In this document: positions 29,444-55,019 of the stretch, piece after piece
Numbering within the stretch: the first letter of the stretch is position 1
How the letters are laid out: each line of letters starts with the position of its first letter
Assembly (NCBI GenBank): GCA_041687695.1
Contig: JAWLBL010000012.1
Span: 32,001 to 96,000 of the forward strand
Direction: 5' to 3'
Length of the DNA stretch: 64,000 bases
Source of the DNA: Myxococcota bacterium
GTDB taxonomy: Bacteria > Myxococcota_A > UBA9042 > PHBI01 > JAWLBL01
The notes under the pieces: generated by a model
Told to the model about the DNA's origin: nothing
Database searches by the model: none
What the model saw: only the letters and a program-made list of their open reading frames with translations
Position numbers and translations under genes: made by a program

Positions 29444-30805
29444 TCAGCCGCGGGTCGACAGGGCGCCCAGCATGGCGTCGACCAGCCAGATCCAGCCGCG
29501 GAAGCCCAGGGTCGGCGCGTCGAACAGCGCGTGGCGGTGGAACGACGGGAAGCCCAGCTCGAGCAGGCGCGGGCGCGGGTGGGCGTCGGTGACCGACAGG
29601 TGGGCCGTGCTGTTGCCGACGAAGAGATCGAGGCCGGGGGCGGCCTGGGCCTCGGCGACGACGCGGTCGAGCATGGTGTGCGAGGGGGCGAAGCAGGCGC
29701 GGACCGGCTCGAAGCCCTCGGGCGAGAAGTCCAGGCCCTCGGGGCGGCGGGCCGAGGCGGCGAGCAGCGGGACCGTCATGCCCAGCTCCTCGCAGGTCGC
29801 GAGGAAGCCGGGGAAGCAGTGCGGGTCGCCAGCGAAGGCGACGCGCTTGCCGGCGAAGTAGTGGGGCACGACCCACTCGAGGCGCGGGACGGCGCGGGCG
29901 AGCTCGGCCTCGCAGAGGGCGTCGGCGCGGTCGAGGCGGCCGACGGCGCGGCCCAGCCCGCGGACGAAGCGGCGGGTGGCGCGCAGGCCGAAGGGCAGCG
30001 GCAGGTCCAGGACGCGCGCGCCGGAGCGGCCGGCCAGGGCGTGGGCGGCGCGCTTGCCGTGGGGCAAGGCGACGACCAGCTCGGCCTCGCCGGCGGCGGC
30101 CAGGTCCTCGTAGCGCGAGCCGTCGAGCCAGACGGAGGTGACCTCGAGCCCGAGCGCCTCGCACAGCCGCCGCAGCTCGGCGGTGTTGGCGCGGTTGTCC
30201 TCTTCGTTGCGGTCGAAGAGGTAGCCGACCAGGGCGACCCGGCCGGGGCGCGGGGCCGCGGAGGGCAGCGCGATGTGGCGGGCGATGGCGAGCAGGGTCT
30301 CGTCGTAGCCGTCGAGCCAGTCGCCGTCGAGCGAGCGGCTGGGGACCTCTAGCATCGGGAAGGGGATCTCGGGCTGCAGATCGGCCAGGATGCGGTCGTA
30401 CTGCGTGCCGATGATCATGACGTGGGGCATCGAGCAGACGAGCGCGGCGCCGACCTTCGGGATGCGCGCGACGCGGCGGATGCGGTCGCGGACCTCGCTG
30501 CCGTCGCTCTTGATGACCCGCGAGGAGTACAAGAGCGTCGAGACGATGCGGTGCTCGCCCATGGCGTCGAGCAGGGTCGAGTTGAGGTCGTGCTTGCCGT
30601 GGACCCACTCGGCCTTGCGGTACAGGCAGTCGGGGCCGTCGATGACCGCGTAGGCGTCGGAGATGGCGTTGATGGCCGTGTACAGGCCCAGCTGGTAGGG
30701 CAGCCGGTACGAGCGGGTGTGGCGCTCGGCGGGCAGCGGCTCGAGCAGCTCGACGCCGGGGCGGTCGGTCGGGAAGACGGCCTCGGGGACGCGCGCGGTG
30801 GTCAT
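29444..30805 (-). CDS. Nitrogenase component-1-like oxidoreductase subunit (NifK/BchB-like, divergent; 453 aa)
   Basis: ATG 30805 overlaps the upstream TGA. VIDGPDC (cf. HGPxGC), CSMPHVMIIGTQYD, SLDGDWLDGYDETL, ELRRLCEALGL, LPFGLRAT, GKRVAFAGDP, LGFPSF...PTLGFRG. Confidence 0.85.
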   Translation of the reverse strand: MTTARVPEAVFPTDRPGVELLEPLPAERHTRSYRLPYQLGLYTAINAISDAYAVIDGPDCLYRKAEWVHGKHDLNSTLLDAMGEHRIVSTLLYSSRVIKSDGSEVRDRIRRVARIPKVGAALVCSMPHVMIIGTQYDRILADLQPEIPFPMLEVPSRSLDGDWLDGYDETLLAIARHIALPSAAPRPGRVALVGYLFDRNEEDNRANTAELRRLCEALGLEVTSVWLDGSRYEDLAAAGEAELVVALPHGKRAAHALAGRSGARVLDLPLPFGLRATRRFVRGLGRAVGRLDRADALCEAELARAVPRLEWVVPHYFAGKRVAFAGDPHCFPGFLATCEELGMTVPLLAASARRPEGLDFSPEGFEPVRACFAPSHTMLDRVVAEAQAAPGLDLFVGNSTAHLSVTDAHPRPRLLELGFPSFHRHALFDAPTLGFRGWIWLVDAMLGALSTRG

Positions 30806-32580
30806 GGGCGGCCTCCTTCGAGGCCGAAGGCGCTGCCGAGGTAGCGGCCGTACAGGCGGTAGAAGGGCATGGCGCAGCGGCTGAGCAGGGCCTCGGCGGT
30901 GCGGACGGCCCCGGCGGGCCCGCAGTCGACGTCGCGCAGCGAGAACACGTTCTTGCCGAGGCGGGTCAGGCGCTTGTCGAAGAAGATCTCGGAGTAGAAG
31001 GCGACCGCCGGGGCGCGGCGCAGGGCGTCCTGCAGCTCGGCGGGCGAGGCGAAGCCGTGCAGGACGTGGCCGGGCAGGGTCGGCGGCGGCGGCGGGCCGG
31101 TGGCCGTGAAGGCCAGGATGTCTACGCCGGAGAAGCCGATCTCGGCCACGAGGTCGAACAGCGGCACGCCCATCAGGCGGCTGGCGGTGAACAGGCCCCG
31201 CCAGTCGGCCCGGTCGCTGACGACGCCCAGGCGGTAGGCGCGGGCGCGGCCACGCAGGGCGTCCCAGCGCTCGGCGACGCGGGCCTCTTCGAGGTCCCAG
31301 ACGTCGCAGGCGCGCTCGAGCAGCCCCAGCGGCTCGGCGATGGCCAGCAGCCACCGGCGCGTGCCGTCGAGCCCGAAGGGGGCCGGCGGGCGGAGCAGCG
31401 GGATGTCGGGGAAGCGCTCGGCGAGGCCTTCGACGGGGCGGGCGTAGCGGTCCCAGCCGTAGGCGACGTTGAGCGCGGCCTCGCCCAGGCCCACCAGCCC
31501 CTCGGGGCTGACGTCGGGGAAGACCGAGCAGCCGATCTCGACGCCGATGGCCTCGAGCAGGCGCACCAGATCCGCGCGCCCCGGCATGTCCGGGAAGCCC
31601 AGCAGGTTCACGCGGTTGGCCACGCGGCGGGACCCGCGCACGCGGGGGTCCGCGCTGAGCTTTTGCAGCAGGACGTCCTGCGGGTTGTTCTCGTTGCCGA
31701 CGACCACGATGGGTACGCCGATGCGGGTCTGGGCGCGGGCGGCCGCGGCCTCGAGGTCGTCGCCGGTCACCATCGGGACGCAGCTGTTGTAGACGACGAC
31801 CATGTTGGGCTTGGACGGCAGGTCGGCCACCCCCTCGAGCACCTCTTGCAGCTTGGCGTCGCCGCCCTTGATGACGTCCAAGTCCGACAGATCGGTGATG
31901 AGCCCCTCGTCGGCGGGGCGGCGCTCCTTCTGGGTGTTCGGCGCGACGGTGTTGAAGAACCCGACGGTGCCTCGGTCGGCCACGGTCGCGTTGAAGCTGC
32001 ACTCGTGCTCTTCGTGCTTGACCGACAGGGCGTCGCCGTCGATGGCCTCGCACACGGCGCGGTACAGCTCGCGGTGCTCGACGAAGGTGCGCCACGCCTT
32101 GCCGGTGCCGTACGAGTAGAACAGGCTCTCGGCGTCGTCCCAGGGCAGCGCGAAGGCGTCGCCGCCCTCGGGGACGACCAGGCCGGCGAGCTGGGCCAGC
32201 GGGACCTGGCCGTAGCGACGGATGAAGCGGCGCACGGCCTTGTCGAGCTCGGGGTGGGGCTCGGCCGAGCGGGTGTGGACCACGGCGAAGCCGGGGGCCT
32301 CGAGCCAGCCGCTGCGGTCGGGCGGGATGAAGGCGAAGTCGACGACGGCGCCCGGCGCGACCTCGGCCCGCAGCTCGATCTCGCCCTCGGCGCCGATCTG
32401 CATCGACTGCAGGCGCCCCTCGAGGCCCAGCGCCTTGCCGAAGCGGGCCAGCGAGTCGGGGCCGGCGGTGGTGCCGGGGCGCGCGGGCGGCGGGGCGGCC
32501 GGCCTCTCGGACACGGCCGGGGCCGCCTGGTCGGGGGCCTCGGGCGCGTAGCCGGCCAGCTCGGGGAAGAGCGTGCTCAC
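30802..32580 (-). CDS. Nitrogenase component-1-like oxidoreductase subunit (NifD/NifE/BchN-like, divergent, with N-terminal extension; 592 aa)
   Basis: AVCEA, KHEEHEC, ITDLSDLDVIKGGDAKL (cf. STDLxExDVVFGGExKL), NSCVPMVTGDD (cf. TCxxxxIGDD), VNLLGF, APFGLDGTRRWL. Confidence 0.82.
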   Translation of the reverse strand: MSTLFPELAGYAPEAPDQAAPAVSERPAAPPPARPGTTAGPDSLARFGKALGLEGRLQSMQIGAEGEIELRAEVAPGAVVDFAFIPPDRSGWLEAPGFAVVHTRSAEPHPELDKAVRRFIRRYGQVPLAQLAGLVVPEGGDAFALPWDDAESLFYSYGTGKAWRTFVEHRELYRAVCEAIDGDALSVKHEEHECSFNATVADRGTVGFFNTVAPNTQKERRPADEGLITDLSDLDVIKGGDAKLQEVLEGVADLPSKPNMVVVYNSCVPMVTGDDLEAAAARAQTRIGVPIVVVGNENNPQDVLLQKLSADPRVRGSRRVANRVNLLGFPDMPGRADLVRLLEAIGVEIGCSVFPDVSPEGLVGLGEAALNVAYGWDRYARPVEGLAERFPDIPLLRPPAPFGLDGTRRWLLAIAEPLGLLERACDVWDLEEARVAERWDALRGRARAYRLGVVSDRADWRGLFTASRLMGVPLFDLVAEIGFSGVDILAFTATGPPPPPTLPGHVLHGFASPAELQDALRRAPAVAFYSEIFFDKRLTRLGKNVFSLRDVDCGPAGAVRTAEALLSRCAMPFYRLYGRYLGSAFGLEGGRP

Positions 32581-33647
32581 CCCAGCAGATCCGATGGGCT
32601 CAGGTGCCGCGCCTCGTTGGGGAAGGCGCCGCGCAGGCGCGCGATGGCCTCGTCGACGCTGACCAGGCCCAGCCGGACGGCGCGGCCGCCGTTGTCCAGC
32701 TCGGTGGCGAAGACGCGGCCGCCGTCCTGGGCGCCTCGGGCGCGCCCCATCAGGCGCGAGGACGACACCAGGGCGCCGGCGGCCTCGGGCGGGGGCTCCT
32801 TGGCGGCCGCGGCGGCCTGCCCGCCCTGGGGCCGGATGAAGCGGCGCTGGGCCAGCTCGTAGAACTCGGTCTCGCTCAGCGGCGTCGGCAGCGGCAGGCT
32901 GCTCGCGTCCAGCGCCCGCACGTCCTGGGCGATCTGCCCGTAGCAGCGCGCGATGGGCGAGGCGGGCGCGTGCTCGACGACGGTCATGCGGCGGTACTCG
33001 GCGTCGCGGACCAGCGGGTCGCGCGGGATGTAGCCGATGATGCGGGCGCCGATGAGGGCGGCGAAGCGCTCGAGCATCGCCCGGTCGGCGGCGTTGTCCT
33101 TGAGGTTGTAGACGATGCCCGCCAGCGCGATGCCGTTGGTGGCGTAGTGGACGACCGCCTTGGCGATGTTGTTGGCCGCGTACAGGGCCATCAGCTCTTC
33201 CGAGGCGACGATGACGACCTTCTCGCCGACGCCGCGCCGCAGCGGGGCCGCAAAGCCCCCGCAGACCACGTCGCCCAGCACGTCGTACAGCGCCACGTCG
33301 TAGCGGTCCGGCGACAGGAGCCCGGCCTCGTTGAAGATCTCGAGCATGCGGGTGATGCCGCGCCCGCCGCAGCCGACCCCCGCGCCGGGCCCGCCCGCCT
33401 CGACGCAGTCGACGCCCAGGGGCGAGCGGGTCACGATGTCGTCGGGCTTGACGCCGCGCACCTGCGAGATGCGGTCGACGACCGGCTCGATCATCCGCCC
33501 GCCCAGCAGCGCCACGGTCGAGTCGTGCTTGGGATCACAGCCGACGTGCAGGACCCGCTGGCCCTCGGCGGCCAGGCTGGCGCTGATCCCGGTGGCCACC
33601 GTGGACTTGCCGATGCCGCCCTTGCCGAAGATGACGATGCGCTCCAC
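32577..33647 (-). CDS. Nitrogenase iron protein family ATPase (NifH/BchL/CfbC-like) with C-terminal extension (356 aa)
   Basis: GTG 33647 after AGGGG. FGKGGIGKST, GCDPKHDST, CVEAGGPGAGVGCGGRG, YDVLGDVVCGGFAAP, MALYAANNI; both [4Fe-4S] Cys ligands present. Confidence 0.95.
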   Translation of the reverse strand: MERIVIFGKGGIGKSTVATGISASLAAEGQRVLHVGCDPKHDSTVALLGGRMIEPVVDRISQVRGVKPDDIVTRSPLGVDCVEAGGPGAGVGCGGRGITRMLEIFNEAGLLSPDRYDVALYDVLGDVVCGGFAAPLRRGVGEKVVIVASEELMALYAANNIAKAVVHYATNGIALAGIVYNLKDNAADRAMLERFAALIGARIIGYIPRDPLVRDAEYRRMTVVEHAPASPIARCYGQIAQDVRALDASSLPLPTPLSETEFYELAQRRFIRPQGGQAAAAAKEPPPEAAGALVSSSRLMGRARGAQDGGRVFATELDNGGRAVRLGLVSVDEAIARLRGAFPNEARHLSPSDLLG

Positions 33648-33770: not shown

Positions 33771-34868
33771 TCAGCGCGGCGCGCAGCGGCTCAGGGCGGC
33801 GTCGCGCGCCGATCCGGCGACACCGCCGGCCTCGAGGGCGGCGCGGGCCTCGTCGCAGCGCCCCAGCTTCACCAGCACGTCGCCGTGCAGCCGCGACAGC
33901 TCCGCCCGGCGCGAGGCGAAGTCGGCCCCCTCGCGCAGGCTGCGGACCACCCGCTCGGCCTCCTCGAGCCGCCGCGCCCGCACCAGCGCCTCGAGCCGGC
34001 TCAAGGTCGCCTCGCGCCACAGGGCCCCCCGAGGCCACCGCGCCAGGTACCCCTCGAACCCCGCGACCGCGGCCCCGTGCTCGCCCGCCTTCAGCGCCGC
34101 CTCCGCCGCCTCGTAGGCCGCCAGCTCGGCCGCCAACGACGACTCGGCCGCCGGCGCCTCGACCGCCTCCGGCTCGCCCGGCGCCGTGGCCTGCTCCGCC
34201 GGCTCGTCCGAGGGTTGCGTCTCGCCCACCGCTGGCTTGCTGCCCACCGTCCGCCGCGCCCGCGCCGCTGGCGCCTTCTCCTCGTCAGCCTCAGCCTCCG
34301 GCTCGGCCACGGCCACGCGCTCGGCCTCGACCACGGCCTCCGGCTCGGCCACGGCCACGGCCTCCGCCTCGGCCACAGCCTCCGCCTCGGCCACGGCCTC
34401 TGTCTCGGCCTCGGCCACAGCCTCCGCCTCGGCCACGACCTCCGCCTCGGCCACGGCCACGCGCTCGGCCTCGGCCTCCCGGTTCGCCACGGCCACGCTC
34501 TCGGCCTCCGCTTCGCGCTCGGCCACCGCTGCTCGCTCGACCGCCCCCTCCCCCGCCGTCACGACCAGCACCCCGGCGACCACGCCGGCGACCACCAGCC
34601 CCAGCACGCCCGCCGCCTTGGCCCCCAGCGCCCCTCCGGCCGCCTGCGGGTCGAACCGGGGCGCCTGCCCCGCCGCGGCCTCCGCCAACACCCGCCGCCG
34701 CAGCTCGGGCAGCGCGGCGTCCACCTCGGCCCCGACCCGCGCCTGGGCGGCCCTCAGGTCGAGGCCCGTCCGCGCCGCGAAGGCCGGATCGTCGGCCAGC
34801 CGCGCCGGCGCCGGCGGCGACGACTTGTGGGGCGTCCCTGGGTGCCTCGTGCCCGTCGTGCGCTTCAT
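33771..34868 (-). CDS. Putative anti-sigma factor: single TM, acidic AEAEAV repeat stalk, C-terminal TPR-like domain
   Basis: ATG 34868 overlaps the sigma stop. TM GVLGLVVAGVVAGVLVV; SLAAELAAYEAA...YLARWPRGAL...E, the myxobacterial ECF-partner pattern. Confidence 0.75.
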   Translation of the reverse strand: MKRTTGTRHPGTPHKSSPPAPARLADDPAFAARTGLDLRAAQARVGAEVDAALPELRRRVLAEAAAGQAPRFDPQAAGGALGAKAAGVLGLVVAGVVAGVLVVTAGEGAVERAAVAEREAEAESVAVANREAEAERVAVAEAEVVAEAEAVAEAETEAVAEAEAVAEAEAVAVAEPEAVVEAERVAVAEPEAEADEEKAPAARARRTVGSKPAVGETQPSDEPAEQATAPGEPEAVEAPAAESSLAAELAAYEAAEAALKAGEHGAAVAGFEGYLARWPRGALWREATLSRLEALVRARRLEEAERVVRSLREGADFASRRAELSRLHGDVLVKLGRCDEARAALEAGGVAGSARDAALSRCAPR

Positions 34869-35443
34869 GGGGCCTCTCCTTCGACCAGGGCGCGCTGGCG
34901 CCACAGCCTCTCGAACGTGCGCCGGGCGTCGTGGAGCCGGCGCCAGACCGTGCCTTCGGGGACCTCGAGCAGGGCGGCGACCTCGCGCCCTTCGAGCGCC
35001 TCGAGCTCGTAGAGGACCAGCACCTCGCGCTGCGGCAGCGGCATGCGCGCCAGGCAGTCCTCGAGCCGCCGGGCGCGGTCGCGGGCCTCGAGGCCGTCGT
35101 CCGGGCGCGGGGCGGCGGGGGCGACCTCGCGCGACAGCAGGCGCTCGAGGAGGCCGCGCTGGCGCTGGCGCGCGCGGTGGTGGTGCTGGACCAGGTGGAC
35201 GGTCGTCCGATACAGCCACGCGCGGGCGTCGGGCGCGGCGGCCAGGGCGTCGCGGCGGCGGTGCGCGACCAGGAAGGCGTCCTGGACGAGGTCCTCGGCG
35301 GCGGCCTGGCTGCCCGTGAGGCGGCGCGCGACGCGGACCAGGAAGGCGGCGTGCGCGGCGAAGAGCGCGCCCAGGTCGGCGAGCGCCGCGGAGGTCGCGG
35401 CGGGCGGCGGGTCGGGCGCGGGGTCGGGGGCGGCTGCGGTCAC
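34865..35443 (-). CDS. ECF RNA polymerase sigma factor
   Basis: AEDLVQDAF, ARAWLY (region 2); REVLVLYELEALEGREVAALLEVPEGTVWRRLHDAR (region 4); GTG start at 35443. Confidence 0.92.
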   Translation of the reverse strand: MTAAAPDPAPDPPPAATSAALADLGALFAAHAAFLVRVARRLTGSQAAAEDLVQDAFLVAHRRRDALAAAPDARAWLYRTTVHLVQHHHRARQRQRGLLERLLSREVAPAAPRPDDGLEARDRARRLEDCLARMPLPQREVLVLYELEALEGREVAALLEVPEGTVWRRLHDARRTFERLWRQRALVEGEAP

Positions 35444-35520
35444 GGGCCTTCCGGGCGGGGGTCCACGGAGAGGTGGTTCCCGGAGCGCGGCGGGGCCTTC
35501 GGACTTTTTGTGAGGGGCGG

Positions 35521-36354
35521 TCAAAAGGTGAGCCCGAGGGTCAGCTCGAAGCGGGCGGGCGGCTCGGTGGCGGCGGCGTCGGCGGGGGCCAGCAGGCGGG
35601 CGCGCGCGAGCGGGACGCGGGCGAGCAGCTCGGCGAAGAGGGCGCGGGTGGACAGGCGCAGGCCGGCCAGGGCGTCGAGGACGGGCAGCAGGGCGGTGGC
35701 GTCGGTCGGGTAGCCCGAGCCCCAGGCGAGCTGGGCGCCGGCGGCGAGGCGGGCGAGCGGGGTGAGGGCGAGCGCGTCGTCGCCCAGGGTGAGGCCGGCG
35801 CCGGCCTCGAGGGCTAGGCCGGAGAGGGTGGCGTCGCCGGCGCCGAGGGCGATGGCGGGGCGGAGGTGGGCGGCGAGGCGGGCGTCGAGGGCCAGGCGCG
35901 CGCGGCGGGCCGAGAGGCCGGCGGCGAGGAGCCAGCGGGGCGAGGGGTCGGCCGGGGCGAGCGAGGCGCCGAGGGCGGCGGCGCCCGACCAGCGCCAGGC
36001 GGAGGGCGGTGGCGGGGGCGGTCGGGGGGGCGGCGGGTCCCAGGTCTCGCGGGGCAGCTCGTCGAGGCGGCGGCGCACGATGCCGGCGACCAGGCGGGGC
36101 ACGTGGGGGCAGTCGGCCGGGGCGACGGCGAGGGTGCGCTGGATGATGACGACGTCGGCGACGGTGACGCGGAGATCCAGGGCGCCGGGGGCGGCCGCGG
36201 GTGTCAGCTGGACGAGGAGCGGGGCGTCGACGCCGGCCTCGGTGAGGGCGCGGGAGAGCGCGGCCGGGTCGGGGCAGGCCGCGTCGTCCGCGACCTCGAC
36301 GCGGGGGGCGGCGCACGACAAGGCGACGAGCAGGCCGGCGAGCGCAGGAGACAT
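35521..36354 (-). CDS. Secreted or outer-membrane hypothetical protein, first gene of the ECF triad
   Basis: Signal-like N-terminus, paired Cys (ACPD...DCP), Pro linker, amphipathic beta strands ending in terminal Phe (LTLGLTF). Confidence 0.65.
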   Translation of the reverse strand: MSPALAGLLVALSCAAPRVEVADDAACPDPAALSRALTEAGVDAPLLVQLTPAAAPGALDLRVTVADVVIIQRTLAVAPADCPHVPRLVAGIVRRRLDELPRETWDPPPPRPPPPPPSAWRWSGAAALGASLAPADPSPRWLLAAGLSARRARLALDARLAAHLRPAIALGAGDATLSGLALEAGAGLTLGDDALALTPLARLAAGAQLAWGSGYPTDATALLPVLDALAGLRLSTRALFAELLARVPLARARLLAPADAAATEPPARFELTLGLTF

Positions 36355-36454
36355 CGACCGCGCATGCTGGCCTACCCCGGACGCGCGCGCAACGGCGGTT
36401 CGTGGTAGTCGGCGGAGAGGGCGGCGGTCGTGGAGCCGTCGGGAGGAGCCGAGG

Positions 36455-37315
36455 ATGAGGTCGATGGCGAAGGGCGTGTGGGTGGCCGGCCTGGTGGTGG
36501 CCGTCGGCGGGTTGGCGGGCTGCAAGGGCCAGCCTGAGACGCCGGTCGCGGCGGCGCCCCCGGTCGAGGCGGCGAGCCCGGTGGCCGAGGCGACACCGAA
36601 CGCGCCGACGCCCGCGCCCAGCGTGGCCGCCGAGGCGCCCGTCGAGGCGCCGCCCGCCGACGACGCGCGGCAGGCCGAGGTCACCATCACGATCGTGCAC
36701 GACACCATCTGCCCGTGGTGCCGCATCGGCCATCACCGCCTGAAGCAGGCGCTGGGTGAGCTGCCCGGGGTGAGGGCGCGGATCGTCTACGAGCCGTTCC
36801 TGCTCGACCCCGACACGCCGCCCGAGGGGCAGGACATGCGCGAGCGGCTGGCGGCCAAGTACGGGGCCGAGCGGATCGAGGGCATGTTCGCGCGGGTCAC
36901 CCAGGTCGGGGCGGCAGACGGGCTGACCTTCGCCTTCGACAAGGTGCGGCGCTCGCCCGACACCACGCGGTCGCACGTGCTCGTCGCCGCGGCGCCCGAG
37001 GCGGTGCGGCCGGCGATCGTCGACGCCATCCACGCGGCCTACTTCGAGCGCGGCGAGGACACGGGAGACGTCGCTGTGCTGGCGCGGCTGGCGGCGGAGG
37101 CCGGCTGGGACGCGGCGGCGGCGCGCGCGGCCCTCGAGGACGCCGAGGCGGCGCGTCGGACGCGGGAGCAGGCGCTGGCGGCGTCGCGGCGTGGGGTGCG
37201 GGGCGTGCCCCACTTCACGATCAGCGGCCGCGAGGGGGTGGCGCCGCGGGTGCTGTCGGGCGCGCAGCCGGTGGCGGCCTTGAAGGACGCCGTGCAGGCG
37301 GTCGCGGCGCCCTAG
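36455..37315 (+). CDS. DsbA family (FrnE-like) thiol oxidoreductase lipoprotein
   Basis: Lipobox LAGC; HDTICPWC; GVRGVPHF; LSGAQP. Confidence 0.9.
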   Translation: MRSMAKGVWVAGLVVAVGGLAGCKGQPETPVAAAPPVEAASPVAEATPNAPTPAPSVAAEAPVEAPPADDARQAEVTITIVHDTICPWCRIGHHRLKQALGELPGVRARIVYEPFLLDPDTPPEGQDMRERLAAKYGAERIEGMFARVTQVGAADGLTFAFDKVRRSPDTTRSHVLVAAAPEAVRPAIVDAIHAAYFERGEDTGDVAVLARLAAEAGWDAAAARAALEDAEAARRTREQALAASRRGVRGVPHFTISGREGVAPRVLSGAQPVAALKDAVQAVAAP

Positions 37316-37542: not shown

Positions 37543-40287
<2,745 letters not shown>

Positions 40288-40388
40288 GGCGTGGGCGTGG
40301 GCCGGTCGGTCGCGGTGGACCGCCGATGATGCCGTGCGAGCGCCGCGGGCCCGAGAGCGCGGTCACGCCAGCCGGTCGCGACCGTCGA

Positions 40389-44114: not shown

Positions 44115-44134
44115 GCCAGGTCGGGTAGGCAGCG

Positions 44135-44927: not shown

Positions 44928-46745
44928 GTGCGCAACGTCCGCCTGGCGCCCTTCACCGGCGACGACCTCATCTATCGGTTCTGCAGCGTCGCGGGCGCCG
45001 CCGGCCGAGCCATGGTCCCCTTCGAGGCGCTCGCGGCCCAGGTGGACGCCCTGGACGTCGAGCGCGCGCCCCTGGTGACGCTCGCCGGCAGCGACCCGCT
45101 CGAGCATCCCGACTTCCCCGAGCTGGTGGCGCGTTGCCGCGCGCGCGGGCTGACCCGCTTTCGCCTGGTCACCGACGGCTACGGCCTCGCCTCGGACACG
45201 GTGATCGCCTTCCTGCGCGACAGCGGCATCGACGAGGTCCGCGTCGTCTTCCCGACCCACGACCCGCGCACCTACGCCCGCGCCATGCGCACCCGCACCC
45301 GCTTCGACGCGTGCGCCGCCGGCCTCCGCAAGGCGGCCGAGAGCGGCCTGGAGACCCACGTCGTCGTCCCGCTGACCACGTTCGCGCGCGAGCACGCCGA
45401 CGCCTTCCTCGACTGGCTCCGCCCGCTGCCCCTGTCGGGCCTGCTCGTCGAGGCGCCCGAGGTCCACCGCGTCCCCGAGCGCTTCCGCGACGCGCTGCTC
45501 CCCTACGCCGACGCCGCCCGCCTCACCGCCGCCCTGTTCGCCGAGAGCCGCCGGCAGCGCCGCGTCATCGGCGTCTTCGAGCGCTGGATCGTCCCCCCGT
45601 GCGGCGCCGACGGCGCCCTCGACGACTACGGCGACCTCTTCAACCAGCGCTACAAGCACTACCGCGCCCACGCCGACACCCCGACCACGCGCGTCGCCGC
45701 CTGCGCGACCTGCGACCTCACCTCGGCCTGCCCCGGCGTCGAGCCCGACTACCTCGCCGTGTACGGCGACGCCGCCCTGCGCCCCATCCCGCTCGACGAA
45801 GCCAACACCTGGTACACCAAGCCCATCAACCGCCTCGACGAGATCCCCTTCAAGCGCGTCTCGGCCTTCGACAACCAGGAGCGCTCGGGCAAGCGCGGCC
45901 TCCTCCGCATCAACGGCCACTGCAACATGGGCTGCTCCTTCTGCTTCGTCGACCTCAGCCAGCCCAACGTCGACGTCGCCGCGCTCACCGCCGAGCTCGA
46001 CCGCCTCGCCGCCACCGGCGTCACCGAGCTCGTCCTCTCGGGCGGCGAGCCGACCCTCCACCCCGGCCTCCCCGAGGTCGTCGCCCACGGCAAGCGCCTG
46101 GGCTTTGCCACCATCGAGCTCCAATCCAACGGCGTCCGCCTCGCCCACCCCGACTACGCCGCCCAGCTCGCCTCCGCCGGCCTCGACGTCGCCTGCCTCT
46201 CCCTGCACTCCCACGACCCCGACGTCTCCGACCGCATCACCAAGCGCCCCCGCGCCTTCGCCAAGACCGTCCAGGGCCTGCACAACCTCCGCGCCCTCGG
46301 CGTCCAGACCCGCATCTCCCACGTCATCAGCCGCCTCAACTACCGCGATCTCCCCGCCTTCGTCCGCTTCGCCCGCGCCGAGTTCGCCGACGGCCCCCTC
46401 GACATCTGCTTCGCCATCGCCCAGGAGATCTCCAGCCAGACCTCCACCTGGGTCCTGCCCACCTTCACCGACATCAAGCCCTTCGTCCGCGAGGCCCTCG
46501 ACCACTGCCTCGCCCACGGCGTCACCTTCAGCGGCCTCATCGGCCAGGGCAGCTACCCGCCCTGCATGCTCGACGGCGACCTCCGCTACTACGAGCGCGC
46601 CCTGCAAGAGGTCCACCTCAGCCGCGACACCCCCGACTGGGTCAAACCCGACCGCTGCCGCACCTGCGCCTTCGACACCCGCTGCCTCGGCGTCCGCCGC
46701 TCCTACGTCGCCACCTACGGTGACGCCGAGATCCGCCCCTTCTGA
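44928..46745 (+). CDS. Tandem-domain radical SAM protein (degenerate N-terminal rSAM, intact C-terminal rSAM)
   Basis: Domain 1: DDLIYRFC, GSDP, TDG, CATCDLTSACPG. Domain 2: CNMGCSFC, SGGEPTLHP, QSNG, CRTCAFDTRCLG. Confidence 0.9.
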   Translation: MRNVRLAPFTGDDLIYRFCSVAGAAGRAMVPFEALAAQVDALDVERAPLVTLAGSDPLEHPDFPELVARCRARGLTRFRLVTDGYGLASDTVIAFLRDSGIDEVRVVFPTHDPRTYARAMRTRTRFDACAAGLRKAAESGLETHVVVPLTTFAREHADAFLDWLRPLPLSGLLVEAPEVHRVPERFRDALLPYADAARLTAALFAESRRQRRVIGVFERWIVPPCGADGALDDYGDLFNQRYKHYRAHADTPTTRVAACATCDLTSACPGVEPDYLAVYGDAALRPIPLDEANTWYTKPINRLDEIPFKRVSAFDNQERSGKRGLLRINGHCNMGCSFCFVDLSQPNVDVAALTAELDRLAATGVTELVLSGGEPTLHPGLPEVVAHGKRLGFATIELQSNGVRLAHPDYAAQLASAGLDVACLSLHSHDPDVSDRITKRPRAFAKTVQGLHNLRALGVQTRISHVISRLNYRDLPAFVRFARAEFADGPLDICFAIAQEISSQTSTWVLPTFTDIKPFVREALDHCLAHGVTFSGLIGQGSYPPCMLDGDLRYYERALQEVHLSRDTPDWVKPDRCRTCAFDTRCLGVRRSYVATYGDAEIRPF

Positions 46746-46799: not shown

Positions 46800-48644
46800 G
46801 TGAAGCGCGCCTCGCCAGCCGGCCGCACGGCCCTCCTCACCCTGCAGAGCCACGGGGACCGCTCCTTCCTCGACGGCCGCGACGAGGCCCTGCTCTCCGG
46901 CGATCTGCGCGCCCTCGGCCTGCCCGCCGACATCGTCCACGCCATCCTCGACCCCCGCGGCGGCGACGGCCCCGCCGGCCTCCCCGCCCAGGACCGCCTC
47001 GCGGCCACCCTCGCCGCCTACGACGTCGTCCTCTTCGAGCGCGTCTGGGACCCCGCCCTCGTCGCCCGCCTCCGCGCCGCCCACCCCACCGCCGTCTGGG
47101 TCTGGTGGCAGGGCGAGCACGCCCTCGCCGACCCGCCCGCCGACTGGGTCGTCCTCGGCACGCCGCGCCACACCGTCCCGGCCCTCCTCCGCTTCTTGCG
47201 CCACCAGACCGCCGCCCCGCCCGCCGAGGCCCGCTTCCGCCAGGGCGACGCCTTCACCCCCGCCGCGGACGCCCGCCCCGCCCCGCGCCTCCCCCTCGGC
47301 TTCACGCCCAACCTCCACCCGGTGGTCGTCAACCCCGAGGCCGCCCCCGGCTTCCGCACCTTCTCGGTCGTCGGCAACCAGGGCTGCCCCTACCAGGCCG
47401 ACGCCCGCGCCAACCCGCTGTACGCCGGCGTCACCATCCCCGACGGCCTCGGCCGCGGCTGCGCCTTCTGCACGACCGGCAACCACTACGTCGGCGCCCC
47501 CGCCGCCGAGACCGCCGCCCGCGTCGCGGCCGAGATCCGCTACCTCCGCCAGCACGCCCCCGCCCTCGACCACCTGGTCCTGCTCGACCAGAACCCGTTC
47601 GCCTACCTCACCGAGGTCGTCGAGGGCCTCGCCGCCGAGGGCACCCCGCCCTTCACCCTGCTGCTCGAGACCCGCGCCGACTGGTTCCGCCGCTCGCGCC
47701 GCCGCTTCGAGCAGGCCCTCGCCGCCGCCCGCGAGGCCGGCTTCACCCTCGCCCCCTTCCTCATCGGCATCGAGAGCTTCTCGCAGACCGAGCTGGACCG
47801 CTTCAACAAGGGCATCACCGCCGAGGAGAACCTCGCCTTCCTCGAGACCCTGTGGGAGTGGCGCGACCGCTTCGCCCCCGCCCTCACCCTCGACCACGCG
47901 GCCTTCGGCTTCATCCTCCTGTCCCCCTGGACCACCCGCGCCGACCTCCGCGACAACCTCGCCGGCATCCGCCGCACCCGCCTCGACCAGCTCCGCGGCA
48001 GCCTGCTCGTCTCGCGCGCCCGCCTGTACCCCGACACCGCCCTGTACTACCTCGCCCAGCGCGACGGCCTGTTGCTCGACGCCTTCACCCACCCCGACGA
48101 GGACAACTCCGCCCGCTACGGCTACTACCCCTCGCAGCCCTGGCGCTTCCTCCACGACGACGTCGCCCACTTCTCGGCCCTCGCCGCCGAGCTGACCCGC
48201 CGCCTCGGCAGCCGCGACCAGGTCCTCGTCTTCCAGACCCTGCTCGACGCCTTCGACGCCGCCGACGACTGGCGCGACGTCACGGCCGACCAGATCCTGG
48301 CCGCCCTGCGCCCCGCCCCCCAGGCCGCCTCCTCCGACGCCACCGCCGCCTCCCCCGAGCTCCGCGCCCGCTTCGCCCGCCTGATCCGCCCACTGCAGCT
48401 CGACGCCCCCTTCGCCGACGGCTGGCGCTTCGGCCCCCTCGCCCTCTCCGAGGGCCGCCTGCGCCTGCGCCTCGACCACGACGACGAGCCCGCCCTCCAG
48501 GTCGACCTCGCCCCGCGCAAGAGCGGCCCCCGCTACGCCGCCTCGCGCCACTACGACATCGCCTACCTCAGCCCGTCGCTCTCGCCCGCCCAGGCCCGCG
48601 CCCTCGACGCCGTCTGCCAGGCCATCGTCGCCAACGACCGCTGA
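46800..48644 (+). CDS. Radical SAM protein with split C-x24-C-x2-C motif, resembling the B12-dependent class
   Basis: GCPY...GRGCAFC; IGIESFSQTELDRFNKG; GFILLSPWTT; about 180-aa N-terminal domain. Confidence 0.8.
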   Translation: MKRASPAGRTALLTLQSHGDRSFLDGRDEALLSGDLRALGLPADIVHAILDPRGGDGPAGLPAQDRLAATLAAYDVVLFERVWDPALVARLRAAHPTAVWVWWQGEHALADPPADWVVLGTPRHTVPALLRFLRHQTAAPPAEARFRQGDAFTPAADARPAPRLPLGFTPNLHPVVVNPEAAPGFRTFSVVGNQGCPYQADARANPLYAGVTIPDGLGRGCAFCTTGNHYVGAPAAETAARVAAEIRYLRQHAPALDHLVLLDQNPFAYLTEVVEGLAAEGTPPFTLLLETRADWFRRSRRRFEQALAAAREAGFTLAPFLIGIESFSQTELDRFNKGITAEENLAFLETLWEWRDRFAPALTLDHAAFGFILLSPWTTRADLRDNLAGIRRTRLDQLRGSLLVSRARLYPDTALYYLAQRDGLLLDAFTHPDEDNSARYGYYPSQPWRFLHDDVAHFSALAAELTRRLGSRDQVLVFQTLLDAFDAADDWRDVTADQILAALRPAPQAASSDATAASPELRARFARLIRPLQLDAPFADGWRFGPLALSEGRLRLRLDHDDEPALQVDLAPRKSGPRYAASRHYDIAYLSPSLSPAQARALDAVCQAIVANDR

Positions 48645-48695: not shown

Positions 48696-50468
48696 TCACC
48701 CGAACGGCGCGACGAACCCCAGCCCCGGGTCGGTCCGCGACAGCTCGAAGACCAGCGCGTCGCCCCGCCACACCGACAGCCGCGCCTCGTCCAGCCGCAG
48801 CCGGTCCCCCAGCGCCAGCGCCCCGCCGAACCGCGCCAACGCCCGACTCGCCGGCCCTGGCACCGCCACCCCGCGATGGCGCACCGCCCCGTCCGCCTCG
48901 ACCGCCCCGTCGAACACCAGCTGGTGGTCGTGGTCGAAGTACAGCACCGGCCGCCCCAGCCCCGCCCGCAGCCGCGCCGCCGCCCCCGGGTGTGCCCGCT
49001 CCAGCTCGCCCAGCGCCGCCCGCGCCTGCGCCAGCGCCGCCGGGCAGTCGTACCGGCACGGATAGAACGGCAGCAGCATCACGCTCAGGTTCGCCAGCTC
49101 CCACGGCCACGGCCCCGGCGCCCGCGTTCGCCCCGCCGTCGCGTAGCGGTTGCGCGTGTTGTTCGCGCGGTCGTCCTGCGCGGCGAAGGCTTCGACGCAG
49201 CAGGGCGGGTAGCCCATCAGCGCGCCCATCTGCCGCAGCTGCGCGCTGGGGTCACCCTCGGCCTGCAGCCGCGCCGCCCGCCGCGCCAGCTCGGCCTCGC
49301 GCGCCACGTACAGCTCGACCCGCGGCTCGCCCCGGTCGCGCCGGTCCACCCACGCGTCCTGCGCGCCCACCTCGACCCGCCGCTCGCGCCGCTCGACGTG
49401 CACCGGCCCGCCGCCGTCGGCGAACGGCGCCACCGCCCGCGCCTCCTCCCCCGGCCGCACCGTCAGGAAGGCCACCGGCTTGAGCCCCGCCCGGAACAGC
49501 CACAGCTCGGCCTCCTCGCTGGGCAGCCCCACGTCCAGCGCCGGCGCCGCCGCCGCCGCGGGCACCTCGCCCCGCAGCCCGAACGCCTCCAGCGGCCCCG
49601 CCCCGCGCGCCATCGCCGCGCGCGCCGTCGCGAACCGCCGCCGCCCCGGCGCCAGCCGCCCCGGCAGCGCCTCCAGCGCCGCCGCCGTCAGCCGCGCCAC
49701 CTCGGCCGCCTCGACCAGCGAGTCCCCCGCCGCCTCGCCCCCGGCCAGCTGCCCCAGCGCCCGCGCCTCGCCCCCACCCAGCTCGGCCGTCGCCGGTCGC
49801 CGCTGCGTCTTCGCCGCCCCGCGCGCCGGCCTCACCGTCACCGCCTCGGCCCCGTCCTCCCAGCGCCACTGCGCCCCGGCCCGCGCCCCCTCGAGCCGCA
49901 CGTCCACCCGCGCCCCGCTGGTCACCACCCGCAGCGCCACCGGGAACCCGGCCTCCAGCGCGACCTCGAAGCGCGACGCCCCGACCTGCCGCGCCCCGAC
50001 CACCCGCGCCCCCGGCGCCACCCGCCGCGCCAGCGCCAGCGCGTGCCACAGGCACTCCTCGGGGTCCCCTTCGCGCGCCTCGGGCAGCCCGCGCACCTCG
50101 ATCTCGGCCCGCGTCACCTCCGCCCCGCCAACGAACCGCTCGCAGAACGCGCGCCCGCTCAGCGTCACCCACCCGTGCGCCACCCGCACGCCCGCCGCGC
50201 CCTCCGGCAACGCCGCCTGCCCCAGCGCCAGCCCCAGCGGCGCCTCGACCACCGCCGGACGCCCCGCCTCGGCCAGCGCCAGCGCCGCCTCGAGCCCCGC
50301 CCGCGGCGGCAACGCGACCGCCACCGCCGCCCCGGGCCAGCGCGCCAGCGCCTCGTCGACCCGCCCGACCTGCCCGACCACCCGCAGGACGCCGCTGCCC
50401 GCCGCCACCTCCGCCCAGGCCCGCGCCCGCCGCCCCTGCCCGACGACGACCAGCTCGACCTCGCTCAC
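48696..50468 (-). CDS. Degenerate Gfo/Idh/MocA-like domain fused to a DUF483-like Cys-motif domain (590 aa)
   Basis: GTG 50468 overlaps the upstream TGA. LVVVGQGRRA, VVEAPL (EKP variant); C-terminal GLKP, LMGYPPCCVEAF, PFYPCRYDC. Confidence 0.72.
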   Translation of the reverse strand: MSEVELVVVGQGRRARAWAEVAAGSGVLRVVGQVGRVDEALARWPGAAVAVALPPRAGLEAALALAEAGRPAVVEAPLGLALGQAALPEGAAGVRVAHGWVTLSGRAFCERFVGGAEVTRAEIEVRGLPEAREGDPEECLWHALALARRVAPGARVVGARQVGASRFEVALEAGFPVALRVVTSGARVDVRLEGARAGAQWRWEDGAEAVTVRPARGAAKTQRRPATAELGGGEARALGQLAGGEAAGDSLVEAAEVARLTAAALEALPGRLAPGRRRFATARAAMARGAGPLEAFGLRGEVPAAAAAPALDVGLPSEEAELWLFRAGLKPVAFLTVRPGEEARAVAPFADGGGPVHVERRERRVEVGAQDAWVDRRDRGEPRVELYVAREAELARRAARLQAEGDPSAQLRQMGALMGYPPCCVEAFAAQDDRANNTRNRYATAGRTRAPGPWPWELANLSVMLLPFYPCRYDCPAALAQARAALGELERAHPGAAARLRAGLGRPVLYFDHDHQLVFDGAVEADGAVRHRGVAVPGPASRALARFGGALALGDRLRLDEARLSVWRGDALVFELSRTDPGLGFVAPFG

Positions 50469-53449
50469 GACCCGACGCGCTCGCGCAGGGGCCCCGACGC
50501 GACCCGCATGGGCGCCGCCGCCCGGTCGAAGGGCGCCCCGGCCTCCTCCAGCGCCCGCAGCATCTCGGACGCCAAGCGCATCGCCGCCACGCCCGCCGCG
50601 CCGTCGGCCGGCGACGCCCCGCCCCGCAGGTGCTCGCGCCACGCCGTCAGCAGCCGCTCCAGATCCCCGCCCCGCGGCGGCGTCCGCGTCCGCCCGCCGG
50701 CCGCCTCGGTCACCTCGAGCTCGTCGCGCCCGTCCTCGCGCACCCAGGTCAGCCCGCGCCCGTCGGCGAACCGCACCCCGACCCGCAGCCCGTCGGCCGG
50801 CGCGTCCAGCGCCAGCTCGATCGTCGCCTCGACCCCGGTCCGCCCCTGCCCCCGGCTGGTCACCACGACGCGCTCGGGCCGCCCGCCGCCCGACGCGCTG
50901 GCCCTGCGCGGCGTCAGCGGCTCGTCGGCCAGCGCCAGCGCCACGTCGCCCAGGTGGATCAGCAGCTCGTACAGCGCCCGTCGCGACCACGCCCGCAGGC
51001 TGCCCGGCGAGGTCGCCGTCGCCCGGTGCACCACCTCGATGGCCACCGGCCGCCGCGGCCCCTTGCGGTCGCCCAGCGCCTCGAGCAGCGCCGCCACGCC
51101 GCTCGACGCCCGCAGCTGCTGCGCCACCGACAGCCGGCCCGCGCCCTCGGCCGCCAGCGCTTCGGCCTCGTCCAACGCCCCCGCCAGGGGCTTTTCGACC
51201 AGACAGGGCAGCCCGCGCGCCAGCGCCACCCGCGCCGCCTCGGCGTGGTGGGCGGTCCGCGACGCGACGATCACGGCGTCGGCCGCGACCTGGTCCAGCA
51301 GCGCCCCCAGGTCGCGCGCCCGCGGCAGCCCCTCGGGCAGCTCGGGCAACTCCTTGTCCGGCGCGTGGGGCGAGGCGACCCCGACCAGCGCGAACCCGCC
51401 GACCCGCGCCATCGTCCGCGCGAACAGCAGCGCCCGCGTCCCGGTCCCGACCAGCGCCACCCGCACCGGCGCCCCGCCTCCCGTCGAAGCCGCCTCGGCC
51501 GCCGCCTCGCCCGGCAGCGGGATCTCGTGGCTGCGCGGCATCCGACCGTCGCCGTAACGCAGCGCCTCGCTCAGCCCCAGGTCGCCGCGTCCCGACTCGG
51601 CCTCGGCCTTGGCCTCGGCGGGCGTCAGCTTCGGCCCCGGCAGCGCCACCAGCTCGTCCGTCCCGTAAAGCGCCGCGTACTGCTTCCACACCCCGGTGCA
51701 CACCTGCTCGAAGCGGCAGTCGGCGCACGCGGGCCCCTGCTGCTTCTGGTGCGCGTCCTCGGTCAGCGCCCCGCTCACCGACGACAGGATGTCGCTCAGC
51801 GGCAGGAACTCGCCCAGCTGGCACGGCGGCACGCCCTGCCGCGACCCGACGATGACGCCGATGCCCAGCTCGACCGCCCGCGCCAGCGCGCGCTTCAGGT
51901 ACGGCACCACCTCGGAGTACCGCGGGACCTTGTCACCCAGGTGCTCGAGCGCCTTGTACTGCGGCGTCACGAAGGCCAGCGACACGCCGATGCGGTCGCC
52001 GAACTCGGCGTGCAGCCACTCGAAAAAGCGCACCAGCGACCGGTAGTTCGCGCCCGACACCACGTGGTTGACGTCGATGCGCAGCCCCTCGTGGCGGGCG
52101 AACAGCTTCAGCGCCGCCACGGTCCGGGCGTGGTCGCCGATCTTGCGCGTCTGCAGGCGCGACAGCGGCTCGTCGTGCGCGTGCAGCGACACGAACAGGT
52201 GCGTCAGCCCGGCCTCCATCAGCGCCTCGACCTTGCGCGGCTTGTCCAGCAGCACCGCGTTGGTCACCAGCTCGACCCGCGACACGCCCAGCCGCCGCGC
52301 CACCTTCACGTACGAGGCCAGGTGCCGCGACAGGGTCGGCTCGCCGCCGCTGAACGAGATCTGCTGGACGCCCGCCCGCGCCAGGCGCGAGATGCGCCGC
52401 AGCATCTTCCCCGGGTCCTCGTAGACGTTGCGCGAGGTCTCGTTGGCGCTGCAGAACCAGCAGTCCTGGTTGCAGTGCACCGTCGGCCGCAGCACCGTCA
52501 GGAAGGCCGTCCGCGCCGCCTGCCGCTTCGTCGCGTCCCACCCCTGCCCGCCCGACACCTGCGGCAGCGCCGGCAGGGGCGCCAGCCCGGCGTCGCCGTG
52601 CCGCGACAGGTACAGCGTCGTCGTCCCGGGGCACATCCGCGCCGCCGGGCAGCCGTCACAGACCGCGCCCAGCGACGACGTGTCGCGCCGCGGCATCGGG
52701 CGGCCGCCGCGCTCGCTCAGCAGGCCCTCGGGCACGGTGACCTGCCCGGCGTCGTCGACGGTGGCCAGGGCGCACAGCGGCACCCCGTCGCGCTCGTTGA
52801 ACGAGACCTCGAGCCCCCGCTCGCGCGCGAAGGCGATGGCCTGCCCGAGCGGCCCGCGCACCCGGTCCCAGCGCGGCGGCGACGCCTTGGCCGAAACCTT
52901 GCCGTCCACCGAGCGCAGCGCCACGGGCGAGTACAGCCGCAGCCGCCGCGCCTCCGGCGCCACCTCCAGCACCTGGGTCAGCAGCGCCCGCAGGTCCTGC
53001 ACGGCCGGGTCCAGCACGGGCACCTCGAGCGAGACCTCGAGCCCGGCCTCGACCAGCGCCTTCAGCCCGGCCAGGCCCGCCGCGTGGGCGCCCCGCACCC
53101 GCGCGATGGCGTCGTGCACCTCGGGCCGCTCGCTGGCGACGAAGAACACCACCCCGTCGACGCCCAGGGCCGCCAGCTCGCGCGCCCGCCCCGGCGCCGC
53201 GTAGGCGACGCCGTTGGTCCGCACCCGCACGCTGCGCCAGCCGCCCTCGCGCGCGCGCCGCACGTGCTCGCCCAGATCCGTCTGCAGGGCCGCCTCGCCG
53301 CGCACCTCGAGCAGCGCCCCGCCGCGGTCCATGGTCCGCAGCACCTCGGCCGGCGCCGTCTCGCGCGCGCGGCAGTCACAGACGGGGCACGCCAGCGTGC
53401 ACCCCGCCGCCAGGACCACCGTCGCCTCGTACGAGCTCGATCGCGCCAT
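50465..53449 (-). CDS. Double radical SAM plus Gfo/Idh/MocA oxidoreductase fusion (994 aa)
   Basis: CTLACPVC...RTNG...CDGCPAARMCPG; CNQDCWFC, SGGEPTL, VTNA, CADCRFEQVCTG; then VRVALVGTG and LVEKPLA. Confidence 0.9.
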   Translation of the reverse strand: MARSSSYEATVVLAAGCTLACPVCDCRARETAPAEVLRTMDRGGALLEVRGEAALQTDLGEHVRRAREGGWRSVRVRTNGVAYAAPGRARELAALGVDGVVFFVASERPEVHDAIARVRGAHAAGLAGLKALVEAGLEVSLEVPVLDPAVQDLRALLTQVLEVAPEARRLRLYSPVALRSVDGKVSAKASPPRWDRVRGPLGQAIAFARERGLEVSFNERDGVPLCALATVDDAGQVTVPEGLLSERGGRPMPRRDTSSLGAVCDGCPAARMCPGTTTLYLSRHGDAGLAPLPALPQVSGGQGWDATKRQAARTAFLTVLRPTVHCNQDCWFCSANETSRNVYEDPGKMLRRISRLARAGVQQISFSGGEPTLSRHLASYVKVARRLGVSRVELVTNAVLLDKPRKVEALMEAGLTHLFVSLHAHDEPLSRLQTRKIGDHARTVAALKLFARHEGLRIDVNHVVSGANYRSLVRFFEWLHAEFGDRIGVSLAFVTPQYKALEHLGDKVPRYSEVVPYLKRALARAVELGIGVIVGSRQGVPPCQLGEFLPLSDILSSVSGALTEDAHQKQQGPACADCRFEQVCTGVWKQYAALYGTDELVALPGPKLTPAEAKAEAESGRGDLGLSEALRYGDGRMPRSHEIPLPGEAAAEAASTGGGAPVRVALVGTGTRALLFARTMARVGGFALVGVASPHAPDKELPELPEGLPRARDLGALLDQVAADAVIVASRTAHHAEAARVALARGLPCLVEKPLAGALDEAEALAAEGAGRLSVAQQLRASSGVAALLEALGDRKGPRRPVAIEVVHRATATSPGSLRAWSRRALYELLIHLGDVALALADEPLTPRRASASGGGRPERVVVTSRGQGRTGVEATIELALDAPADGLRVGVRFADGRGLTWVREDGRDELEVTEAAGGRTRTPPRGGDLERLLTAWREHLRGGASPADGAAGVAAMRLASEMLRALEEAGAPFDRAAAPMRVASGPLRERVGS

Positions 53450-55005: not shown

Positions 55006-55019
55006 GCCGACGGGGCCTC

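Follow-up and report, generated by a model that had tools for sequence, protein, structure and literature searches.

A Group VI nitrogenase-like reductase and a radical SAM cassette as possible accessory parts of His-Xaa-Ser peptide maturation in a Myxococcota bacterium

The 64,000 nt of DNA analysed here (positions 32,001 to 96,000 of contig JAWLBL010000012.1 of a Myxococcota bacterium, assembly GCA_041687695.1; hereafter the window) contain a three-gene operon for a nitrogenase-like reductase, nflHDK, and a convergent cassette of four genes rich in radical S-adenosylmethionine (rSAM) domains. We propose, with about equal weight for and against, that both blocks are dispersed accessory parts of HxsA4-type peptide maturation rather than a self-contained cluster, and that they supply an optional reductive tailoring step; the reductase is considered optional because many genomes with HxsA4 lack nflHDK. 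Judged from sequence, the substrate of the window's enzymes is probably the HxsA4 peptide encoded on another contig (C19) of the same genome. More tentatively, NflHDK could be the first nitrogenase-family enzyme to act on a ribosomal peptide, performing ATP-driven reduction of His/Ser units in a (His-Gly-Ser)n polymer, and recruited by an undescribed domain of ~100 aa that tags rSAM, DUF483-like, halogenase-like and 2-oxoglutarate-dioxygenase-like enzymes in a dispersed combinatorial network.

The reductase family and its association with rSAM enzymes are already in print (10.1101/765248), so the system, presented in the initial annotation as a candidate novel pathway, is not undescribed. No publication joining Group VI nitrogenase-like enzymes to His-Xaa-Ser peptides was found in the mostly open-access literature searched.

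The Group VI reductase operon

Gene models were codon-usage calls confirmed by family scans (Pfam, NCBIfam). The reductase is encoded on the minus strand by three genes, of which neighbouring ones overlap by 4 nt:

32577..33647, minus strand: nflH, Group VI Fe-protein, 356 aa (Pfam Fer4_NifH, 280 bits; trees)
30802..32580, minus strand: NflD-like subunit, 592 aa, N-terminal accessory domain and component-1 core (Oxidored_nitro, 88 bits)
32170..32463, minus strand: accessory domain at the NflD N-terminus, residues 40–137, ~100 aa (profile searches; model)
29444..30805, minus strand: NflK-like subunit, 453 aa (Oxidored_nitro, 147 bits)

NflH retains the P-loop (Walker A, residues 8–15) and both cluster cysteines (Cys93 and Cys129), is 39–43% identical to plasmid NifH, and ends in a C-terminal extension of ~85 aa that is also common to its closest clade. 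In NflD, C194 and C267 are conserved in 74/74 aligned sequences and C569 in 60/74, with no conserved Cys in the region between Cys267 and Cys569, while NflK has a single conserved Cys, C60 (80/82 aligned sequences), together with the conserved polar residues H72-D73, R86, D198-R199-x-E201-x-D203 and H425 (82 sequences). The D/K pair keeps three conserved Cys (C194 and C267 of NflD, C60 of NflK), within the Group VI limit of four out of six P-cluster Cys, and lacks FeMo-cofactor ligands, the equivalence to NifD/NifK/BchN positions being taken from an alignment with added reference sequences; this inventory would suffice for one [4Fe-4S] cluster at the D/K interface.

All scores against characterised families were below the NCBIfam cut-offs, with NflH reaching 278 of 394 for nifH, 199 of 345 for BchL, 176 of 331 for BchX and 277 of 402 for CfbC, the CfbD score at 22 against a cut-off of 268, and the D and K subunits far under the cut-offs of the NifD and NifK models. 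The operon is the sole nitrogenase-like reductase of the source genome (99% complete), in which no match to NifB (TIGR01290) was obtained, with controls matched in 2/14. Nitrogen fixation by a Mo, V or Fe nitrogenase, dark-operative protochlorophyllide oxidoreductase (DPOR) or chlorophyllide oxidoreductase (COR) activity, and F430 synthesis were rejected as functions, because the respective cut-offs were missed (NifH/D/K for the first, BchL/BchX/CfbC/CfbD for the others) and, for nitrogen fixation, because NifB was absent.

On these sequence features the window reductase is assigned to Group VI NflHDK, an established family. An NflH tree contained a 95/95 split separating 24 rows, including the window and GWF2_62_30 proteins, from 26 rows including NifH and BchL; this tree used 50 of 88 rows, a FastTree over all 88 agreed, BchL formed a long branch of unsure placement, and the reference sets of the trees did not include CfbC and BchX. 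With NflK as query, a locus was retrieved from GWF2_62_30, an Elusimicrobia genome that the Group VI paper (10.1101/765248) mentions by name. In that paper, Meheust et al. (2020) introduced a NifH group new at the time, which has divergent D/K subunits and many rSAM neighbours (0 to 13 copies) and occurs in Elusimicrobia, Gracilibacteria and fourteen Myxococcales genomes. The window shares with it the P-loop and two bridging Cys, ~40% identity to NifH, at most four P-cluster Cys, the absence of NifB and the occurrence in Myxococcales, and differs in that its one operon stands by itself, with the nearest rSAM genes 11 kb away, and in the NflH extension; the accessible part of that paper makes no mention of His-Xaa-Ser peptides, the accessory domain or fusions of R2-type rSAM enzymes with NflD. 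DPOR (BchLNB), COR and CfbCD are likewise two-component ATP-driven reductases with Cys for one [4Fe-4S] cluster per D/K pair, but DPOR has three ligands on BchN where the window has two on D and one on K, and the window lacks a photosynthesis or F430 context.

Rather than a unique cluster, the locus is a typical representative of a widespread family, with nflH matched in 63 of the 107 genomes of its class. In the same 107 genomes, nflK was matched in 56, R2 in 59 and the DUF483-like domain in 67. Expansions of nflK-like genes were seen in G034 (up to 15 matches), G008 and G020–G024. A divergent subgroup (G055:C11, G072:C7, G083:C23 and G104:C196), with two or three component-1 chains of ~445 aa and a NifH-like protein branching nearer to true NifH, may be a separate group.

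The HxsA4 peptide system and its co-occurrence with the reductase

The source genome encodes the parts of a His-Xaa-Ser (HXS) peptide system, detected with NCBIfam models that include NF038313 (HxsA4) and NF038332 (HxsC4):

C19, cluster 27799-49218: HxsA4 precursor, 112 aa, 18 His-x-Ser repeats (128.6 bits, cut-off 55)
C19: HxsC4 (545 bits, cut-off 500)
C19:93929: HxsD (over cut-off)
C1:78877: HxsB (over cut-off)

The cluster C19:27799-49218 also holds about ten rSAM genes and an alpha-ketoglutarate (aKG)-HExxH hydroxylase. HxsA4, HxsB, HxsC4, HxsD and HExxH were all over cut-off in the source genome and none of them lies in the window, where a six-frame search, aimed at His-x-Ser repeats and not at other kinds of short precursor, found none; the earlier statement that no precursor peptide was seen overlooks HxsA4, which is encoded on a different contig. 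Since the Hxs system is dispersed over the source genome, detached modules are not surprising.

The Hxs motif is credited to Haft and Basu (cited in PMC9062424). In the canonical HXS system, HxsD-HxsB-HxsC-HxsA form a four-gene antiphage operon, 99.7% of which are in Pseudomonadota, and HxsB/C introduce a +8 Da post-translational change on the His-x-Ser motif of HxsA (Li et al. 2026, PMC13128918). The source genome resembles this system in its HxsC-type rSAM maturases, a His-x-Ser repeat substrate, HxsB and HxsD. It differs in having its parts on several contigs, many extra rSAM enzymes, R1 and R3 far under the HxsC4 cut-off, and a precursor made up of a leader (112 aa) and 18 repeats, whereas the canonical system has five repeats and a peptidoglycan-binding effector.

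Co-occurrence of Group VI nflHDK with HxsA4 was found in two phyla. In a sample of 201 Elusimicrobiota genomes, HxsA4 was present in 21 and a NifH-like gene in 22, of which 10 were classed as NifH or NifB-linked and dropped (nine after scanning, G143 on the evidence of its locus), leaving 12 as Group VI; HxsA4 was present in 11 of these 12. Seven of them, including GWF2_62_30, have nflH and HxsA4 on one contig at a distance of 6–21 kb, while G286 has nflDK two genes from HxsA4, giving eight linked genomes in total. Three Elusimicrobiota clusters contain HxsD, HxsB and HxsA4. Within Myxococcota outside the class of the source genome, 13/15 genomes with Group VI-like nflH had HxsA4, compared with 51/243 overall; four genomes with paired weak matches of 35–40% identity (G446, G470, G478, G521) were left out of this count, which would be 14/19 with them. 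In the class itself, nflH was present in 59/83 genomes with HxsA4 over cut-off and in 4/24 without. The relation is nested, with the reductase nearly always accompanied by the peptide, and the peptide often found without the reductase.

The weak NifH-like pairs of the omitted genomes (G446:C4, G470:C10, G478:C12, G521:C10) are 7–25 kb apart and are possibly BchL and BchX of photosynthesis clusters. In the Elusimicrobiota genomes G293, G140, G122, G287 and G143 the NifH-like gene stands beside a short rSAM gene (NifB-like in the two that were scanned), with no D/K in the fetched stretch.

The rSAM cassette, the shared domain and their coupling to the reductase

The cassette consists of R1 and R2 facing GD and R3:

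44928..46745, plus strand: R1, 605 aa, an rSAM fold without cluster triad, then an HxsC4-like rSAM domain, both with a terminal Cys-rich tail (HxsC4, 133 bits, cut-off 500; alignment)
46800..48644, plus strand: R2, 614 aa, rSAM enzyme with C196-x24-C221xxC224 and C-terminal accessory domain (Pfam Radical_SAM, 30 bits)
48366..48626, plus strand: accessory domain at the R2 C-terminus, residues ~523–609 (NflD-domain profile)
48696..50468, minus strand: GD, 590 aa, degenerate Gfo-like domain and DUF483-like domain (alignments, Atlas, model)
50465..53449, minus strand: R3, 994 aa, two HxsC4-like rSAM domains and an intact-looking Gfo/Idh/MocA domain (HxsC4, 129 bits, cut-off 500; GFO_IDH_MocA, 49.5 bits)

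The genes of both blocks and a spacing of ~11 kb had been noted in the initial annotation and were confirmed, with R1 starting 11.28 kb away from the start of nflH.

Most NflD proteins start with the accessory domain of ~100 aa, and the same domain forms the tail of R2. A profile seeded with 59 NflD domains only (28 of the 87 N-terminal segments, which were truncated, H-fused or divergent, were omitted) identified the R2 tail as best non-self match among the 5,896 predicted proteins of the source genome, with an independent E-value (iE) of 8e-8 against 0.0094 for the best reversed decoy, followed by two other rSAM proteins and a halogenase-like protein. Iteration, in which the scores are partly self-hits, added the rSAM protein next to HxsA4 on C19, a PhyH protein and more rSAM proteins, along with one membrane and one small twin-arginine protein. 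A reverse profile made from 32 rSAM-borne domains of other genomes also had R2 as best match (8e-10; best decoy 6.5e-4), and the two profiles align at 98.2% probability, the second set having been selected with the first. A library of 1.84 billion proteins yielded 473 matches from the NflD-heavy seeds, with 98 of the best 150 being NflD. The 31 longer non-NflD matches comprised 20 rSAM, two DUF483, one halogenase-like, two likely repeat artefacts and seven without a family (one protein is counted twice), and the other 21 of the 52 non-NflD matches (20 short, one >5,000 aa) were left out of the Pfam scan. The domain was matched in 80/107 class genomes.

The accessory domain belongs to no Pfam or NCBIfam family. 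Its AlphaFold model (predicted local distance difference test score, pLDDT, 93.6) has a topology of a helix, three to five strands and two helices, and a fold search gave no clear match, with a best PDB Z-score of 4.5 (root-mean-square deviation, rmsd, 3.2; 75 aligned residues). The winged-helix recognition element (RRE)/PqqD fold of ribosomally synthesised and post-translationally modified peptides (RiPPs) was not among the fold-search matches, which is not evidence of a new fold, and there was no alignment with HxsD (probability 0.6%). Single-sequence iteration from the R2 tail or the NflD N-terminus retrieved almost nothing, and only the family profile succeeded; the Atlas gave no usable match to the R2 tail.

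Further carriers of the domain in the source genome are halogenase-like, PhyH/amidohydrolase, rSAM, B12-rSAM and membrane proteins (C41:26756-28858, C57:3226-5583, C42:41056-42270, C1:487287-489233, C9:196042-198009, C55:314-1609 and C58:8330-9694), with those on C57 and C1 resembling separate small biosynthetic loci. A protein of 171 aa (C19:43548-44063, minus strand) has an apparent twin-arginine signal and the accessory domain alone (weak before iteration), and its homologue immediately precedes the R2-like gene in G048, G052, G053 and G056.

The reading of the reductase and these rSAM and DUF483-like families as functionally coupled despite their unconserved spacing appears right, because R2-type/NflD fusions and an NflK-rSAM fusion exist and the accessory domain is common to NflD and R2. 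In two cases, G067:C114 and the elusimicrobium G284:C27, a single stop-free frame whose codon bias is even throughout encodes an R2-type rSAM domain together with NflD, the R2-type parts being identified by BLAST (E 5e-24 and 4e-18) and their triad, not by Pfam; in G067:C26, NflK is fused to an rSAM domain and carries the accessory domain. The claim that both blocks form one biosynthetic system is thus supported at the level of the families, but not as a conserved seven-gene pathway, which was ruled out by its occurrence in 0/6 of the closest loci and by a cassette in G068 and G069 that lies on contigs other than those of nflHDK and combines R1, an R3-like/DUF483-like fusion (no Gfo) and R2. 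Full-length R1 orthologues were found in only these 2/106 other class genomes (41% identity). The six closest nflHDK loci are those of two Byssovorax genomes, of which one has a second copy, of an uncultured Myxococcales, and of G044 and G075; one of the loci is on a contig of only 7.7 kb.

It is improbable, in our estimate, that the two blocks are chance neighbours with different products, and that the shared domain is a general myxobacterial tailoring module, for example for lipids or surface glycans. Such a reading agrees with the unconserved arrangement, with the R2 query finding no R2-like gene in the five genomes to which the closest nflHDK loci belong (a search without positive control), and with the presence of the domain in loci whose other genes are of membrane, PhyH and further non-Hxs types. 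It is countered by the fusions in two phyla and by the 7/49 unselected class loci in which R2-like or DUF483-like genes adjoin nfl genes (11/53 if four loci fetched for that co-location are counted). Further points against it are the R2-like and DUF483-like genes within the HxsC/HExxH clusters of G048, G052, G053 and G056, four genomes of the same order without nflH match, and a random proximity of about 2%, a post hoc figure (stretches up to 11.3 kb from one of the 18 such genes make up ~2.1% of the genome). Among the five genomes that carry the closest nflHDK loci, the DUF483-like profile matched in 4/5 and HxsC4 was over cut-off in 4/5. Of the R2-positive genomes, 18/59 have no nflH match.

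Five rSAM domains in three proteins had been predicted, and five rSAM folds were indeed recognised, but only four have the cluster triad. The N-terminal fold of R1 is without CxxxCxxC, as in its G068 and G069 orthologues (alignment), and the first triad of R3 is atypical. The widely spaced C-x24-CxxC triad of R2 is invariant in 35/35 aligned sequences; its NCBIfam matches are weak (HpnJ, BchE, RiPP C-methyltransferase), with a weak likeness to B12-dependent (class B) enzymes. Two Gfo/Idh/MocA-like domains had also been proposed. That of R3 stands (cut-off 24), with the family motifs EKP and H-x-x-D kept, whereas the N-terminal domain of GD is degenerate, having lost the motif Lys and Asp in the alignment, and gave no Pfam match at E 0.1.

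The Cys-containing DUF483-like domain of GD scored 18.8 bits, under the Pfam (PF04467) gathering cut-off of 25, but has support from Atlas matches of 0.93–0.94 to clusters with DUF483 in 28–41% of members. Four of its Cys (C423, C424, C471, C475) are invariant in 22/22 sequences. Two related library proteins exceed the cut-off (33 and 26.5 bits). The model of this domain (pLDDT 87) had no Foldseek match at E 0.001; its N-half resembles PDB 2guk (Z 10.0, rmsd 3.8) and 4r29 (Z 7.2, rmsd 3.0), each over 104 aligned residues, the former being an uncharacterised protein and the latter a SAM-dependent cysteine methyltransferase. These VIA-align matches span residues 2–123 only, and the resemblance is no more than a lead.

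The genes between the two blocks are not counted in the system:

33771..44788, strand not assigned: extracytoplasmic function (ECF) sigma factor with two flanking genes, DsbA, P-type ATPase, lipoprotein-like gene and GSP_synth module (family scans)

These agree with the intervening genes listed previously, with the lipoprotein-like gene in addition, and no ECF or Gsp matches were found beside any of the six closest nflHDK loci. At 41348-44788 (plus strand), genes for a GSP_synth-like ATP-grasp protein, a 459-aa protein (twin-arginine-like start, Gly/Arg-rich tail) and a 217-aa protein of no known family form a glutathionylspermidine-synthase-like module, unrelated to the reductase finding. Two CotH kinase-family lipoprotein-like genes are located at 53593-55005 (minus strand) and 60584-61909 (plus strand), and the GC skew is negative (to −0.32) across the rSAM cassette (44001-56000) and positive upstream.

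Proposed reaction and its alternatives

In the proposed peptide maturation, HxsB, HxsC and HxsD with the many HxsC-like rSAM enzymes, including R1 and R3, would cross-link or oxidise His/Ser of the (His-Gly-Ser)n core, and R2 would probably methylate or rearrange the core peptide. Using ATP, the NflH dimer would supply electrons of low potential to one [4Fe-4S] cluster between NflD and NflK, held by C194 and C267 of NflD, C60 of NflK and a fourth ligand not assigned to a residue. NflDK may then reduce a conjugated or heteroaromatic unit built on the peptide by two electrons, much as DPOR and CfbD do, and the accessory domain would dock the enzymes either to the peptide or to each other. Support for a peptide substrate is given by R1 and R3, for which HxsC4 is the best match, although neither reaches the equivalog cut-off. 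A nitrogenase-like enzyme with an rSAM partner and a non-tetrapyrrole substrate is the isethionate reductase IsrBHDK (Group IV-F; PMC13474568; see also PMC11423573), in which the rSAM protein is a NifB homologue, whereas no NifB was found in the source genome.

Several observations weigh against this proposal. None of 59 Myxococcota loci has nflHDK adjoining HxsA4, and five genomes (G260, G091, G012, G408, G448) have nflH and no HxsA4 match. The co-occurrence counts overstate the link because the genomes are related and hence not independent, and for the same reason Fisher tests on them are given no weight. Repeats are also prone to poor assembly, and the divergent subgroup (G055, family f18) nearer to NifH is contained in the nflH counts for class and phylum. 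R2-like, DUF483-like and Gfo genes were near none of the six closest nflHDK loci, and the window's own nflHDK clade stands apart in that any rSAM gene was near only 1/6 of its loci, compared with 27/53 other class loci and 16/18 Elusimicrobiota loci. The tracking of nflH with R2 is weak (41/59 R2-positive and 22/48 R2-negative class genomes), the reverse profile did not find the window's NflD domain at E 0.1, and one Elusimicrobiota cluster (G298) has five HemN-like rSAM genes. Finally, since the accessory domain is also carried by proteins outside Hxs clusters (flavin-halogenase-like, PhyH/amidohydrolase, membrane and B12-rSAM proteins), it need not recognise HxsA4.

The published proposal is that Group VI reduces a tetrapyrrole into a new cofactor (10.1101/765248), with the rSAM enzymes tailoring it, a reading to which we assign a low probability. 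It draws on the closest characterised relatives with a simple [4Fe-4S] cluster, DPOR, COR and CfbCD, which act on tetrapyrroles, and on B12-binding and HemN_C domains in Group VI clusters (10.1101/765248; PMC13474568), although the former paper reports precursor synthesis in five genomes only. The HemN-like genes of G298 and the position of BchL among the Group VI-like rows in both trees, on its long branch, would also fit. B12-binding and HemN-like folds are, however, also typical of class B/C rSAM methyltransferases in RiPP pathways. The rSAM enzymes match His-Xaa-Ser maturase models best, the clusters hold HxsD, HxsB, HxsA4 and the aKG-HExxH peptide hydroxylase over cut-off, and 0/54 proteins from the three Elusimicrobiota clusters (54 chosen from 100 open reading frames) were over a tetrapyrrole-enzyme cut-off.

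NflHDK might also serve the Hxs rSAM enzymes indirectly, as electron donor, Fe-S/cobalamin activase or NifEN-like scaffold, and never touch the peptide, which is unlikely but somewhat less so than a tetrapyrrole substrate. The rSAM fusions and a docking-type shared domain fit contact between enzymes equally well, and an activase or scaffold would suit the best NCBIfam match of NflD, NifE at 63 bits, and the cysteine desulfurase in the G107 cluster. Such a role is harder to reconcile with the several divergent nflDK paralogues in many genomes (at most 15 nflK, in G034), which look like substrate-specific enzymes, with the conserved polar residues of NflK, which suggest a catalytic pocket, and with the 24/83 HxsA4 genomes that operate their rSAM enzymes without an nflH match.

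Within the nitrogenase family, Group VI has a name of its own, yet a 2026 review (PMC13474568, section 7) still lists it with unknown function and without an assigned reaction. The HxsA4 peptide is a small, genetically encoded candidate substrate, and the reaction of Group VI is therefore directly testable. The accessory domain offers a handle for dispersed pathway members that neighbourhood mining misses. If the proposed action on HxsA4 is true, nitrogenase-type low-potential chemistry would join the peptide-modification toolbox.

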